From a virus (lineage: Duplodnaviria; Heunggongvirae; Uroviricota; Caudoviricetes): a DNA stretch of 13,075 nt. The stretch is from IMG/VR virus record IMGVR_UViG_2690316099_000003. One strand, written 5' to 3'. Positions 2,824 to 12,999 of the stretch are shown here, piece after piece. Below the pieces are notes generated by a model that made no database searches, was not told where the DNA came from, and was given only the letters and a program-made list of their open reading frames with translations. The position numbers and the translations under genes are program-made. Numbering within the stretch: position 1 is the stretch's first letter; each line of letters starts with the position of its first letter.

Positions 2824-3186
2824 TTAACGACCTGCTGCGCGGAGTTTTCCGTCAGGTTCACCGGCAAGAGTCAGTAATTGTCCCTGGTCTTCCTGCAGAA
2901 TAGTCAGGCGACCACCGCGATTGACATACATCGGCGTTTCGGTGGTGTCTTCTTCGGAAATTTTCCCGCGGTTAGTCGGGCGAACATATGAGAGTTTGTG
3001 TTTGATTTTCACACGGTTCTCATCAAACGGTTCGATTTCCAGGTTGAGCGAGACCTTACCTTTGGTTTTCGTGTTCATCACACCGGAAGCGACTTCACTG
3101 AGAACAGCGCCGATTTTGGTTTCAAATACGCCGCCGTCCAGCTCCCCGATAAATGCCTGCACATCAGTACTGCGTTCGCTAGCCAT
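2824..3186 (-). CDS. yfdP: YfdP-like phage protein (120 aa), first gene of the leftward early operon
   Basis: Track ORF 2824-3504 trimmed to ATG 3186-3184 (MASERSTDVQ...), preceded by GAGGAG about 9 nt upstream; gives 120 aa. The upstream 106 codons of the long ORF lie in the structured GC-rich island and are unlikely to be coding. Confidence 0.5.
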   Translation of the reverse strand: MASERSTDVQAFIGELDGGVFETKIGAVLSEVASGVMNTKTKGKVSLNLEIEPFDENRVKIKHKLSYVRPTNRGKISEEDTTETPMYVNRGGRLTILQEDQGQLLTLAGEPDGKLRAAGR

Positions 3187-3234
3187 TTTGCTGCTCCTCA
3201 TCATATCGACCCTGCAAGGTCGGTTGGTTTCTCC

Positions 3235-3368
3235 ACAAAACAGAGAAGAACACCTGCGGTGGCAGCCGCCCGGATGGATTGGGTTATGAGCCCGTCGTCC
3301 GATGATGCTCTTCTCTGTTTTGTAAAAAGTACGGTACCAGCCGGAAGCAAGGGTACAAGCTGGTACCG
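3235..3368. repeat. Structured element: 15-bp perfect inverted repeat (3235-3249 / 3309-3323, 59-nt loop) followed by a 10-bp perfect inverted repeat (3332-3341 / 3359-3368, 17-nt loop)
   Basis: Read directly: acaaaacagagaaga ... tcttctctgttttgt and cggtaccagc ... gctggtaccg. Sits in a GC-rich non-coding island between the YfdP-like start and the orphan ORF at 3656. Confidence 0.6.
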
Positions 3369-3655
3369 CCAAGACTACACACAGCATAAAGTTGTGGTGC
3401 CGGGTGCCTCCCGGTGCCTGGCGAAGGTTGTACACCAGACGGGTGGGTATCCACAGAAGGTCGACTGTCAGCCTCAACCTTAACCCGCGTGCGCTGAGCC
3501 GCATTCACCACAACGCTAAGGATTCTCTCTGGTTGAAAATACTTAGCTGTTATGTGCCTGCTTTTAGCCACATCAGGCGAGGTGGACCTGGTTATTCCCC
3601 AACAACAAGGATTTGGTTAATCTGGATACCCCCAACAACTAGCTGAGTATTCAAC

Positions 3656-4177
3656 GTGATAGCTGAACTGTCTGCGGCTATGGCTGCTATAAAGGAGACT
3701 GCCGGTCTTGCTAAGGTTATTAATGACGCGAAAACGGATGCAGAAGTTAAAGCTGCAACCATTGAACTCCAGAACAAACTAATCACGCTTCAGGCAGAAT
3801 GCTTCTCTCTTGGCGATGCGATCCGCCTTCGTGATGAAGAGGTGATGCATCTCAAAGCAAAAATTGCAGAGTTTGAAGATTTTTGTGCCAAGGTAGAAGG
3901 ATATGTCCTTGATCAGCTTGACTCTGGTGCTTTTGTTTACTCTAAAAATGAAATTGTGAGTGGAAAAGAAATAACTGTGCATCTGTGCCCACTTTGTTAT
4001 TCCAAAAATATAAAATCGATACTTCATCCGCTTCCAGTAGGTAAAACTTCTCATTTTCTTACAAGCCGTTGCCTTCACTGTGAAAATAAATTTCTTATGG
4101 AAAAAAATCCGATGTACGAACGACCAAGATCATTACGTGAGTCGGGGCGAGATCTGAATTCGCCTTGGATTCCTTAA
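3656..4177 (+). CDS. Orphan hypothetical protein, coiled-coil N-terminus plus C-terminal CxxC...CxxC zinc ribbon (173 aa from GTG 3656; alternative ATG at 3680)
   Basis: Longest ORF in an AT-rich segment; CPLC and CLHC pairs about 26 residues apart; convergent with cI; no convincing SD for either start, so start and coding status are uncertain. Confidence 0.45.
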   Translation: MIAELSAAMAAIKETAGLAKVINDAKTDAEVKAATIELQNKLITLQAECFSLGDAIRLRDEEVMHLKAKIAEFEDFCAKVEGYVLDQLDSGAFVYSKNEIVSGKEITVHLCPLCYSKNIKSILHPLPVGKTSHFLTSRCLHCENKFLMEKNPMYERPRSLRESGRDLNSPWIP

Positions 4178-4208: not shown

Positions 4209-4281
4209 NNNNNNNNNNNNNNNNNNNNNNNNNNNNNNNNNNNNNNNNNNNNNNNNNNNNNNNNNNNNNNNNNNNNNNNNN
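4209..4281. other. Assembly gap (73 N) flanked on both sides by the same octamer ccagattg
   Basis: Run of n characters read directly; true length and content unknown. Confidence 0.95.
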
Positions 4282-4298: not shown

Positions 4299-4323
4299 GA
4301 AGCGTCCTATAGGGCGCTTTTTT
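4299..4323 (+). terminator. Rho-independent terminator (plus strand): stem gaagcgtcc / gggcgcttt, loop tata, then T-run
   Basis: Hairpin with one G-U wobble followed by tttttt, read directly; lies just right of the gap and downstream of the orphan ORF. Confidence 0.5.
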
Positions 4324-4442
4324 GTTGCTAACGAATCATCCTGGACTTCATTTGCCCCAGGAGGCTACTTTGTGGGCGTCCTGCCTGTTCGTTATCTTTG
4401 ATATTAAATCTAACTTAACTTAGTTTTTAAGGCAAGAGGAAA

Positions 4443-4466
4443 CACCAAACTTTTCTTAGTTTGGTG
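4443..4466 (-). terminator. Stem-loop caccaaac / gtttggtg (8-nt loop) immediately downstream of the cI stop; candidate cI terminator and/or OL operator region
   Basis: Inverted repeat read directly; on the minus strand it is followed by tttcctctt (moderately T-rich). It also contains one copy of the recurring cttagttt motif. Confidence 0.35.
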
Positions 4467-4488: not shown

Positions 4489-5115
4489 CTAGAGTTCGTA
4501 TTGAACTCCTTTGACTACACCAATGATCAGGCAATTACCATTGATTGGGATGTTGGGATACCGTGGATTTAATGGCACTAAAAACTTTTGAGGACCATCG
4601 ATGACTAATTTTTTTACTGTAGCTTCGTTCGTTCCATCAAGTCGAGCAATGACTATTTTTCCATGACGAGGTTCTGCATCAGGATCTACAATCACTGTTG
4701 CACCTTCTGGTATTGTTGGGAGGCCATTAGGATTAGTCATGGAGTCGCCTTTAACTTCTAATGCAAATGAGTTATCACCAATCTTTAAAGATGTATCTAC
4801 CCACTTGTCCACTTCACTAAACACTTCTGCTGCCCTGCACTCAGTAAACTGCCCAGCCTGAACCCACGAAATTACAGGAACTCTGCGCATGTTTGTGACT
4901 AGTTTGCCTTCAAACTCAGCACCATAAAGAATGTAATCTATTGACGTATTAAAGAACTTCGCTAATTTCGAAAGTGCTTCCCCGCCAGGGACATTGATGT
5001 CTTTTTCCCAGTACCCCACAGCAACGTCACTTACCCCACAAAATTTACCCAATTCTTTCTGGGACGTTCTGGTAACCCTTCTCAGAGCTTTTATACGCTG
5101 ACCAACCGTTTCCAT
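4489..5115 (-). CDS. cI-like phage repressor: N-terminal HTH plus C-terminal S24 (LexA-type) autopeptidase domain (208 aa)
   Basis: N-terminal HTH (VGQRIKALRR...TSQKELGKFCGVSDVAVGYWE); C-terminal GDSM catalytic Ser motif and downstream KK (VKKLV) typical of S24 self-cleaving repressors; divergent from the Cro-like gene. Confidence 0.8.
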   Translation of the reverse strand: METVGQRIKALRRVTRTSQKELGKFCGVSDVAVGYWEKDINVPGGEALSKLAKFFNTSIDYILYGAEFEGKLVTNMRRVPVISWVQAGQFTECRAAEVFSEVDKWVDTSLKIGDNSFALEVKGDSMTNPNGLPTIPEGATVIVDPDAEPRHGKIVIARLDGTNEATVKKLVIDGPQKFLVPLNPRYPNIPINGNCLIIGVVKGVQYEL

Positions 5116-5213
5116 AGGAGCACCATTTCTTAAATTACTAAGTAATCTTAGTTTTTATTGACCTAAGATAGATTGATAATTAACATCTAATAAAACTTAG
5201 TTTTGGAGGGCGT
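5116..5213. promoter_or_regulatory. Divergent immunity-region control region (PRM/PR-like) with operator-like palindrome ACTAAG-TAAT-CTTAGT (5137-5152) and further CTTAG/CTAAG half-sites (5163-5167, 5196-5200); candidate PR -35 ttgacc (5158-5163), 17 bp, -10 taacat (5181-5186)
   Basis: 98 bp AT-rich gap between divergent cI-like and Cro-like starts; palindrome and half-sites read directly; promoter hexamers are by-eye matches to the sigma70 consensus. Confidence 0.55.
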
Positions 5214-5414
5214 ATGACAACTGACGATATCGAAAGCTACTTCGGCAGTATTGAGAAAGTTGCTGCTTTTTTCGGCATAACAACTGAGGCCGTTTATCAG
5301 TGGCGAAACCGTCCGGGCCAGTTAATTCCAAAAGGACGTGCAGCAGAAGCAGCATATAGAACTTGCGGACGGTTGCCATTTAAACCTGAGCTTTATGAAA
5401 AATCTAATGGATAA
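5214..5414 (+). CDS. Cro-like small HTH regulator (66 aa)
   Basis: Small ORF divergent from cI with GGAGGG RBS; HTH-like segment EKVAAFFGITTEAVYQWRN; stop overlaps the start of the next gene. Confidence 0.6.
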   Translation: MTTDDIESYFGSIEKVAAFFGITTEAVYQWRNRPGQLIPKGRAAEAAYRTCGRLPFKPELYEKSNG

Positions 5415-12372: not shown

Positions 12373-12672
12373 AAAAATTCCTTAATACTGATAACTTGGC
12401 GCACTATACACACGTTCCTGAAGAAAGCTATAGTTTTTTGATGGGGTTGAAGATGGCTGGATGTCTAAAATAAACATTGCTTCATATGTTCAACTATGCG
12501 TTAATGATTGCGTCGGTTTGAAGAACAGACGATATACGAAGTAGTTTACTAAAGCAGTTCTCATTTCAGGTGTTATTCACTTATTCCTTCTTTGAGTCTC
12601 TCCAATTAAGTACGAAGTCGTTTCTGTTATACAAGCCATTTATGCCGAAAGGCTCAAGTTAAGGAATGTAGA

Positions 12673-12888
12673 ATGTCAAATAAAATGACTGGTTTAGTAA
12701 AATGGTTTAACGCTGATAAAGGTTTTGGCTTTATTTCTCCTGTTGATGGTAGTAAAGATGTGTTTGTGCATTTTTCTGCGATTCAGAATGATAATTATCG
12801 AACCTTATTTGAAGGACAAAAGGTTACCTTCTCTGTAGAGAGTGGTGCTAAAGGTCCAGCAGCAGCAAATGTCATCATTACTGATTAA
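12673..12888 (+). CDS. cspB: Cold-shock protein CspB-like, CspA family (71 aa)
   Basis: [38 protein letters not shown] with RNP1 (KGFGFI) and RNP2 (VFVHF) motifs; about 300 bp AT-rich upstream region consistent with the long 5'UTR of cold-shock genes. Confidence 0.85.
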
Positions 12889-12999
12889 AATTCATAGTTT
12901 GTCTGTATACGATAACGAAGAAGGCTGATGCCTGAGTGGAGATACAGACAGAGTGGTGAATATTGGATCTCTTTAATAAATAGTAAGGAGGTCCAATAC

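Follow-up and report, generated by a model that had tools for sequence, protein, structure and literature searches.

The stretch described here, positions 3187-3655 of a 13,075-nucleotide (nt) piece of viral DNA (IMG/VR record IMGVR_UViG_2690316099_000003, hereafter the window), lies in the early region of a lambdoid prophage of the SfV / e14 / ST64B / CPS-53 type, between yfdP and an orphan gene (Table 1). A sequence-only reading had taken it for a non-coding stretch whose inverted repeats form RNA stems, and this is upheld. The minus strand encodes, from about 3585 to 3324, a complete RNA unit that consists of a leader hairpin, a pseudoknotted core, a single-stranded linker, and an intrinsic terminator. 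A truncated second unit follows. The element is a real relative of the STnc100/PasD small RNAs and belongs to a divergent branch that current annotation misses; in the e14 prophage of Escherichia coli K-12, the homologous DNA is annotated as the gene ymfH. We think that the element is probably an Hfq-type small RNA made from the early-left transcript, so that "small non-coding RNA", one of the candidates offered earlier, was essentially correct.

Table 1. Features at and around the RNA element (window positions; features on the minus strand are read from high to low numbers; UTR, untranslated region; bp, base pairs)
Feature	Positions	Strand	Remarks
yfdQ	1933-2757	minus	annotation of homologues (yfdT...yfdR, yfdQ, yfdP order)
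yfdP	2824-3186	minus	annotation of homologues; phrog_204 match, E 1e-49
yfdP start codon	3186-3184	minus	
Rest of yfdP 5'-UTR	3187-3227	minus	hairpin CGACCUUGCAGGGUCG 3224-3205; Shine-Dalgarno GAGGAG 3199-3194
Truncated second unit	3228-3323	minus	part of yfdP 5'-UTR
Second unit: vestigial P1/J UUGUGGAGAAA	3238-3228	minus	
Second unit: second small hairpin	3269-3256	minus	
Second unit: insert hairpin ACGGGCUCAUAACCCAAUC	3295-3277	minus	
Second unit: long P0-type stem	3323-3299 with 3259-3235	minus	15-bp inverted repeat
Second unit: ACAAAACAG	3323-3315	minus	
Intrinsic terminator	3324-3370	minus	stem 3368-3359 with 3341-3332 (10-bp inverted repeat); U-run 3328-3324
Linker UUUAUGCUGUGUGUAGUCUU (conserved UGCUGUGUGUAGUCUU)	3371-3390	minus	mostly unpaired in minimum-free-energy fold
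Structured core	3515-3389	minus	125 nt; five helices and pseudoknot
Core: P1	3514-3506 with 3399-3391	minus	
Core: J1/2 AAU	3505-3503	minus	
Core: P2 hairpin	3502-3487	minus	
Core: P3	3486-3484 with 3443-3441	minus	GGG with CCC
Core: pseudoknot	3481-3475 with 3430-3424	minus	AAGGUUG with P4 loop CAACCUU
Core: P4	3440-3433 with 3423-3416	minus	
Core: P5	3414-3400	minus	invariant CCGGG-AGGCA-CCCGG
P0 leader hairpin of unit 1, CUAAGUAUUUUC...GAGAAUCCUUAG	3516-3546	minus	minimum-free-energy fold
Leader motif CACAUAACAG	3547-3556	minus	family consensus CACAACAG
Small upstream hairpin CCAC-CUCGCCUGAU-GUGG, then CUAAAAGCAGG	3568-3585	minus	5' limit of conserved unit
Spacer of orphan-gene module	3586-3655		two CCCCAACAAC copies; presumed promoter region of plus-strand gene 3656-4177
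Orphan gene	3656-4177	plus	phrog_1244 member, E 3e-52, no assigned function
Predicted PL, TTGCCT-N17-TAGATT	4435-4407	minus	3' of repressor's terminator
Operator-like repeats AACTTAnCTTAGTTT	4412-4426, 4448-4462; 5140-5154, 5189-5203		first two left of repressor gene, last two on cro side
LexA-family repressor gene	4489-5115	minus	
cro	5214-5414		then replication genes and Q region

In an Rfam scan by E-value, the only meaningful hit of the stretch was to STnc100 (RF02076; gathering score 47 bits). The minus strand matches from 3544 to 3322 over the full model (positions 1-206), with 38.5 bits and E = 2e-6, and similar sub-threshold matches of 35-41 bits occur in loci L001-L005 (an E. coli chromosome, PhiR49_1, SfV, SfII, and ST64B; L numbers denote the loci that we compared). 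Distant BLAST matches of the core were to phage phiES15 and, at about 70% identity, to phage P1. A scan of IMG/VR for the invariant string ACCGGGARGCACCCGGCACC returned more than 120 contigs, and the 125 distinct extracts fall into two branches. In type A, P2 reads CCCCCUGUGCGGAGGGG. In type B, which includes the window, e14, SfV, ST64B, phage P1, and phiES15, P2 reads GCGGCUNAGCGCACGC and there is an extra GGG/CCC helix.

To relate the branches, we used a covariance model, R1, that was built from 13 type-B sequences only. R1 scores 113.5 bits on the window and finds about 100 further copies at 33-65 bits (E of 1e-4 to 1e-12). In the other direction, the type-A copies in the 14 loci that were re-scanned with Rfam are all STnc100, at 52-165 bits and over the gathering score. 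Detection is reciprocal, and type B and STnc100 are significantly similar over their full length in both sequence and structure. At the gathering score, Rfam lists no type-B copy, including those of phage P1, phiES15, e14, L017, L025, and L031 (at 10174). R1 found no second copy in the window, the side of the rightward early promoter (PR) and the region after Q included, and no match in HK022 or in K-12 CPS-53.

The window and STnc100/PasD have in common the closing helix P1 (UGGUG/CACCA), GAAU, a P2 hairpin with a U-NN-GCG loop, the P4 hairpin, and the invariant CACCGGGAGGCACCCGGCACC, followed by a linker and a terminator. P1, P2, and P4 are supported by covariation, the P5 hairpin is conserved, and the Rho-independent terminator lies a few tens of nt 3' of the core. 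The pseudoknot is common to types A and B. Also, STnc100/PasD (in Salmonella and in enterohemorrhagic and enteropathogenic E. coli, EHEC and EPEC, with PasD1/PasD2) are, like the element in the window, prophage-borne and in the sense orientation within phage operons. The window differs in having GCGGCUNAGCGCACGC rather than CCCCCUGUGCGGAGGGG in P2, the extra P3, and another linker. The location differs as well: type B lies in the early-left operon (or the ban operon of phage P1), whereas STnc100/PasD lie in the late region (3' of Q, tRNAs, stx). PasD is a small RNA that was validated by northern blot and whose stability depends on Hfq (PMC8550237), and STnc100 and PasD have been described as related RNAs with a common scaffold and different seeds (bioRxiv 10.64898/2026.05.13.724894). 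Two other reported RNAs were considered as counterparts and rejected: svsR of the related NC-SV prophage belongs to a different locus, at the 3' end of cI (PMC12803456), and C0293 of e14 is located elsewhere.

Within the core, GGUGAAU and CACCGGGAGGCACCCGGCACC are near-invariant. When 95 distinct sequences are aligned to R1, 93.7% of the cells are paired, versus 38-54% if the 3' partners are slid. Both sides change in 7 of the 9 pairs of P1 and in 3 of the 5 pairs of P2, and P5 never varies. The MAFFT alignment of the variable middle of the core was not structure-consistent, so P3, P4, and the pseudoknot were tested by alignment-free parsing, in which we took the hairpin ending just before P5 and asked if the segment just after P2 can pair with the loop of that hairpin. 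The position of the best pseudoknot helix is fixed, at 31-36 nt from the start. More than 15 different complementary sequence pairs form it, and in 76% of 101 members it beats shuffles of the loop with p ≤ 0.05. The pairs include AAGGUUG/CAACCUU (window), UGGUUAU/AUAACCA (phage P1), AAGGCUG/CAGCCUU (phiES15), AGACUGACA/UGUCAGUCU, CCAGUC/GACUGG, and AUCAGCA/UGCUGAU. The RNA is the minus strand because P4 and the terminator contain U-G pairs and because G-U counts exceed those of other mismatches in the inner pairs of P1. The checks that had been proposed from the sequence, a covariance-model scan and a comparison of homologous prophages for compensatory changes, settled the question. A direct repeat noted at the same time, ggtgcct (3403-3409 and 3413-3419), is there and is a by-product of the repeated CACC motif in the minus-strand CCAGGCACCGGGAGGCACCCGG, which comprises the 3' arm of P4 and the P5 hairpin.

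The stem of the terminator is the perfect 10-bp inverted repeat that had been noticed at 3332-3341 / 3359-3368. Its length is weakly unusual (at least 10 bp in 10 of 300 shuffles); compensatory changes and the kept U-run in homologues make it a real stem. ST64B has GUCGGCGUC/GACGCCGAC in place of GGCGGUACCAG/CUGGUACCGCC and keeps CUUUUUAC, and the stem in e14 is likewise changed by compensation. A simple terminator scan missed it because of the 17-nt loop. In the family as a whole, a stem and U-run stand 34-85 nt after the core in 100 of the 125 members (80%), as compared to 26 of 125 (21%) on the reverse complement. The motif UGCUGUGU(G)UAGUCUU lies directly 5' of the terminator in ST64B, phiES15, L025, L073, L085, and L096. 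Seven diverged members of type B have the linker next to the terminator, also where an inserted hairpin of about 75 nt separates the core from the motif, and the conserved length of the linker is 16-20 nt. The linker is a candidate seed or Hfq-contact region.

On the 5' side, the string CCACCTCGCCTGATGTGGCTAAAAGCAGGCACA is found upstream of the core in the Cronobacter phage phiES15 too, and other type-B members have a hairpin at the equivalent place. Motifs of the CACAACAG type stand just 5' of P0 in phage P1, L031, L054, L017, L085, L096, and ST64B; the one in the window may serve as a processing site, or the RNA may begin close to it. The P0-equivalent stem covaries in type B (AAGAGCAUU/AAUGCUCUU, GAAGCGCAUU/AAUGCGCUUC, AAGGACAUU/AAGUGUCCUU, AAUAUCACUG/CAGUGAUAUU).

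The second of the noted inverted repeats, 15 perfect bp at 3235-3249 / 3309-3323, is part of a 25-nt pairing with 84% complementarity. In 300 dinucleotide-preserving shuffles of the region, the longest inverted repeat averages 7.5 bp and is 12 bp at most, and 15 bp is never reached. The 10-bp and 15-bp repeats are parts of separate modules, the former as the terminator of the complete unit and the latter as the leader stem of the truncated second one. The order 3' of the U-run is ACAAAACAG-AGAAGAGCAUCA...ACGGGCUCAUAACCCAAUC...GGUGUUCUUCUCUGUUUUGUGGAGAAA, and this sequence aligns with the region immediately 5' of the type-B cores in phage P1, L031, L085, and L096, which is laid out as CACAACAG, the P0 stem AAGAGCAUU/AAUGCUCUU with an insert, and then UUGUGGUGAAU. 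Because of this alignment, we interpret 3228-3323 as the leader that is left of a second, now coreless unit. The pairing of its stem is kept in ST64B and e14 (AGAGAAG/CUUCUCU becomes AGAAAAG/CUUUUCU, and G-U/C-G becomes G-C/U-G), and the CGACCUUGCAGGGUCG hairpin that follows covaries in ST64B and SfII. The second-unit module accompanies yfdP in mEp460, cdtI, and Stx2c phages, and tandem units are normal for the STnc100 family.

Two descriptions in the sequence-only reading hold in part. The direct repeat CCCCAACAAC (3597-3606 and 3630-3639) is present but not beyond chance, as 26 of 300 shuffles contain a direct repeat of at least 10 nt, and it lies outside the conserved RNA. (We also considered these repeats as left operators, OL, and rejected this: the repeat is not significant and the immunity-type operator repeats are elsewhere.) The stretch had also been called a GC-rich island. 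Its GC content of 0.525 is above that of the orphan gene to the right (0.41), but yfdP to the left is nearly equal (0.51), so that, with 0.48 for the whole window, this is a one-sided step.

Relatives of the element elsewhere vary in their setting. Phage P1 (L007, NC_005856) has an unannotated type-B core with a long P0 leader at 3501-3627 (record positions 70077-70203, plus strand). It lies in the leader of the C1-controlled ban operon, after tRNA-Asn and tRNA-Thr/upl and before tciA, and CCUUA just after its P1 helix could pair with the tciA Shine-Dalgarno sequence UGAGG. A third variant, with CCGG-AGAUCAGCA-CCGG in place of P5, occupies the equivalent slot in mEp460, cdtI, and Stx2c phages. 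In mEp460 (L136, 2732-2869, minus strand) this variant is upstream of the yfdP module, with P1 and GGUGAAUGCG unchanged, and it overlaps the annotated plus-strand open reading frame (ORF) gp37, which may be spurious. Finally, tandem arrays of 2-5 STnc100 units, about 255-490 nt apart, occur in late operons (L023 2265-3380; L081 4349-5513 and 8357-8555; L033 342-1038; L042 1702-2340; L071 6983-7660), with 3-5 copies in a row by Rfam in L023, L033, L042, and L081. Where checked, the arrays lie between a DNA methylase gene plus tRNA genes and a nanS-p esterase gene. In the L023 array, a terminator was found only after the last unit (the scan covered 3 of the 4 units).

The region is widespread: 2857 of 5426 complete E. 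coli genomes contain a match to 3150-3700, and there are further matches in phages of Shigella, Salmonella, and Cronobacter and in phage P1. Similarity to SfV, SfII, and e14 stops at about 3585, and similarity to SfIV and Kati stops at about 3639. The leftward early promoter PL is predicted at about 4400-4435 from the operator repeats and a -35/-10 pair. A consensus TTGACA-N17-CATAAT is at the equivalent place in SfV and e14, and the repressor's own terminator (CACCAAACU...AGUUUGGUG) overlaps one of the AACTTAnCTTAGTTT operator-like repeats. With PL there, the element would lie about 850 nt inside the PL transcript, past the antisense orphan gene (a moron). The sequence-only reading had compared the stretch to the PL/nutL position of lambda, and this is not borne out, given the strand of the element and its distance from the promoter.

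The orphan gene had been suggested as a partner of the RNA, but SfV, e14, ST64B, phiES15, and phage P1 carry the RNA without this ORF. The N-terminal half of its product is coiled-coil-like, and CPLC...CLHC motifs point to a zinc ribbon. The gene runs antisense to the transcript from PL, with a terminator of its own at 4299-4328; in the spacer at 3586-3655, a promoter consensus was found on neither strand. Other morons fill its slot elsewhere (SfV orf33, e14 ymfJ/ymfI, mEp460 gp37). Beyond it, 4210-4281 is 72 N, bounded by a direct repeat of CCAGATTG. The homologue in L001 (98.5% identical) has a single CCAGATTG with nothing in between, which leaves an 80-bp extra segment in the window; this may be an artefact of scaffolding, or else an insert that was masked and is accompanied by an 8-bp duplication. 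Two other RNA features were seen. At 12512-12955 (plus strand), 3' of the prophage's Q region, a cspA thermoregulator match (161 bits, well over the Rfam gathering score) marks a cold-shock-protein gene with a long structured 5'-UTR. Also, the early-right region of ST64B (L005, 5232-5308, plus strand) has an isrK-family RNA (64 bits, over the gathering score) that is not annotated in the record.

The strand of the element, its structure, its family relationship, its terminator, and its lack of coding function are established by the comparisons above, and what follows on the promoter, on Hfq, on action in trans, and on the part played by the core is inferred. We propose that the element works as follows. 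Upon loss of the repressor, transcription from PL (at about 4400) would proceed leftward, cross the orphan moron in antisense, and enter the element. Polymerases that halt at the terminator would release an RNA whose 3' end is a stem with a U-tail, and this RNA would be about 200-260 nt long, either after 5' processing or if it starts at its own weak promoter. Pairing in trans would be seeded by the linker, and the pseudoknotted core would serve as a stabilizing or partner-binding scaffold. Polymerases that read through would transcribe the second-unit remnant, which now acts as a structured 5'-UTR, followed by yfdP-yfdT, xis, and int. The analogy behind this proposal is that a core, linker, and terminator in this order are the architecture of Hfq-dependent base-pairing small RNAs, and that the relative PasD depends on Hfq for its stability. 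The layout also agrees with the common scaffold and different seeds described for STnc100 and PasD. In K-12, ymfH, ymfJ, xisE, and intE are co-induced by DNA damage in a manner that depends on LexA cleavage (PMC11228462) and fall into one iModulon (PMC12133099), which supports transcription from a repressed early promoter and read-through of the terminator.

Several observations weigh against this proposal. First, the score of 38.5 bits is below the gathering score of 47, so the element is not a strict member of STnc100. Second, a sigma-70 consensus was not found upstream of the element. (By eye, there is a sigma-54-like GG-N10-GC spacing, which is not kept in SfV or e14.) In Reg-Seq data, K-12 ymfH has an active upstream start site in only a single condition and a single replicate (PMC12133099), so a free-standing small-RNA gene is putative. 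K-12 data may also not reflect an active element, as P5 is damaged in that copy (CCGGG-GGCACCCGA). Third, no complement to the linker with 3 or fewer mismatches exists elsewhere in the window. Fourth, the copy in phage P1 has no terminator, is 30 nt before the start codon of tciA, and looks cis-acting. Finally, a near-invariant pseudoknotted domain of 125 nt goes far beyond what base pairing by a small RNA requires, so something else may be the main function.

One alternative is that the stretch punctuates the operon and does nothing in trans. A tL-type barrier, together with structures for RNA stability or processing, would hold the recombination and excision genes apart from the immunity and moron region until the polymerase becomes termination-resistant. 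The second unit has a long stem that looks like a substrate for RNase III, comparable to the one in the lambda N leader. Also, a conserved terminator does stand between PL and yfdP...xis/int, SfV has two terminators in series at the equivalent position, a conserved leader RNA directly after PL could confer read-through, and the e14 genes 3' of the terminator are co-induced with those 5' of it. However, a terminator does not need an invariant pseudoknotted domain of 125 nt or a conserved linker, and the copies of the domain that lie 3' of Q in late operons are abundant discrete small RNAs in uninduced lysogens. As a full account, then, punctuation seems unlikely to us, although the terminator of an early-operon small RNA would most likely punctuate the operon as well.

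A second possibility, of which we are similarly doubtful, is that the core belongs to a new class of riboregulators, in which GGUGAAU, U-NN-GCG, and CACCGGGAGGCACCCGGCACC bind a conserved host machine or a metabolite. RNA polymerase, the ribosome, or an RNA chaperone could be the partner. If so, lambdoid phages and phage P1 would place the core, singly or in arrays of up to five, in long operons, and it would tune transcription, RNA fate, or host physiology. Overexpressed K-12 ymfH has been reported to trigger the RcaT toxin of retron-Sen2 (preprint, bioRxiv 10.1101/2020.06.22.160242), and this would then be an effect of the RNA.

Third, the element could be a sensor or attenuator that acts in cis. 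The core would bind a ligand or a factor of the host or the phage and set the read-through of the adjacent terminator by early-left transcription or, in phage P1, the translation of tciA, and the released "small RNA" would be a by-product. The structured domain is followed by a terminator in 80% of the members, the domain in phage P1 stands directly before a ribosome-binding site, the near-invariant unpaired or loop nucleotides and the pseudoknot are as in ligand-binding RNAs, and the orientation within long phage operons is always sense. But complementarity between the 5' arm of the terminator and the core, as an antiterminator would require, is at chance (mean 5.5 versus 5.2 in shuffles, median p = 0.43; p ≤ 0.05 in 4.7% of 85 members), and the core and the terminator fold side by side in the minimum-free-energy structure. 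The downstream genes (yfdP, kil, xisE, tciA, and the nanS-p esterase) have no common function, and tandem arrays of 3-5 units are unlike known arrangements of riboswitches. This seems rather improbable to us.

The sequence-only reading had also raised a processive antiterminator like put of HK022, in which the nascent RNA binds RNA polymerase and suppresses downstream terminators. Such a role would suit a phage that lacks an evident N-like gene (the ORFs on the minus strand from PL to the element are antisense to a real phage gene) and in which terminators must be passed to express xis and int. Nevertheless, we consider it very unlikely. The HK022 immunity region has no STnc100 match in an Rfam scan at E ≤ 10, and R1 has no match at putL or putR. 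Also, put is described as two stems (PMC9378689), while the element has five helices and a pseudoknot. The element is about 850 nt from PL and, in SfV, 3' of the first annotated putative terminator; and a terminator follows it at once, which relatives evidently use to make small RNAs.

That the stretch is protein-coding, degraded or real, as a YmfH-type protein or an N-terminal extension of YfdP, is highly improbable. There are annotations to this effect: ymfH in K-12, SfII_35 over the stretch in SfII, and, in L001, a "frameshifted hypothetical protein" from the Prokaryotic Genome Annotation Pipeline (PGAP), which was presumably called by similarity to the YmfH entry. The window has an open frame of 226 amino acids (2824-3504, minus strand) in frame with yfdP, as well as ORFs of 95 and 84 amino acids. 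So the earlier statement that there is no convincing ORF needs rewording, as open frames exist but none of them behaves as coding. Relative to ST64B, substitutions by codon position are 27/22/23 and the indels are of 2, 1, 1, and 20 nt, as compared to 25/35/78 and indels of 12 and 3 nt for yfdP in the same pair. The frame is not conserved, and conservation instead tracks the RNA helices, with minus-strand G-U wobbles. The translations of the stretch are rich in Arg, Cys, His, and Trp and have no match in Pfam; the sole PHROG match, on K-12 YmfH, is to phrog_33599, a family of 37-amino-acid fragments. Given the lack of codon periodicity and the frame-breaking indels, the stretch is non-coding.

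In e14, ymfH (b1142, annotated as a protein of 103 amino acids) covers the homologous DNA, which is 90% identical, and R1 scores 95.7 bits inside the coding sequence (L137, E. coli K-12 MG1655, 5260-5385, minus strand). A deletion of 1 nt in the P5 loop, together with further shifts, is the only reason that the ymfH frame exists; YmfH is a chimera of three frames relative to other phages, and PhiR49 shifts frame again. Also, e14 has lost yfdP-yfdT, so that the element there abuts xisE.

Lastly, a DNA-level element (an operator or a recombination or replication site of inverted repeats) would fit the mosaic break points at module edges (about 3372, 3585, and 3639), but it is hardly credible because the immunity-type operator repeats AACTTAnCTTAGTTT (at 4412, 4448, 5140, and 5189) are outside the stretch, the pairing goes through G-U wobbles that are A-C mismatches on the other strand, and the pseudoknot and U-run are sensible only in RNA.

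STnc100 is among the most often annotated bacterial small RNAs and is without known function. The conserved pseudoknotted core does suggest a specific partner: a pseudoknot that is supported by covariation and loops that are near-invariant across the family both point that way. Its type-B branch is invisible at the Rfam threshold and has been annotated as hypothetical proteins, as a frameshifted pseudogene, or as K-12 ymfH. Identifying the RNA removes a phantom protein from the uncharacterized set of K-12, and experiments with "ymfH" clones need re-reading. The series of PL, conserved leader, moron, RNA unit with terminator, and remnant unit gives an outline of early-left transcription in this N-less group of lambdoid phages.

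How does the element compare to known early-operon RNAs? Both HK022 put and the element are structured RNAs in the early operon of a lambdoid phage without an evident N gene. However, they have no similarity in sequence or by covariance model, and the element has another fold, another distance from the promoter, and its own terminator. By eye, HK022 and the window have only short motifs in common, of the CGAAC and GGAUGA type, and in the window these are in the PL leader and not in the element.

The PL leader is itself a conserved RNA of 72 nt (4324-4395, minus strand) that begins about 5 nt after the predicted PL start (ACGAACAGGCAGGACGCCCAC..AGUAGCC..stem-loop..GGAUGAUUCG). About 20 variants occur with different immunity types (the window, SfV/e14, SfII, ST64B, and IMG/VR contigs), and the inner stem covaries (CCUGG/CCAGG, CCCGG/CCGGG, CCGGU/ACCGG, CCCGA/UCGGG). 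It has the position of putL in HK022 and has CGAAC and GGAUGA in common with put, and a model of it (R2) did not detect HK022 put or a second copy in the window. As a lead, this RNA is a better candidate than the element for the antitermination or nut-like site of the N-less group.

In lambda, as in the window, a structured RNA and a terminator stand between PL and the recombination and excision genes. The early-left leader of lambda has nutL, an RNase III hairpin before N, and tL1, while the window has no boxA/boxB pair and no evident N gene. Instead, and unlike the leader of lambda, the element is a family-specific pseudoknotted domain with a duplicated leader.

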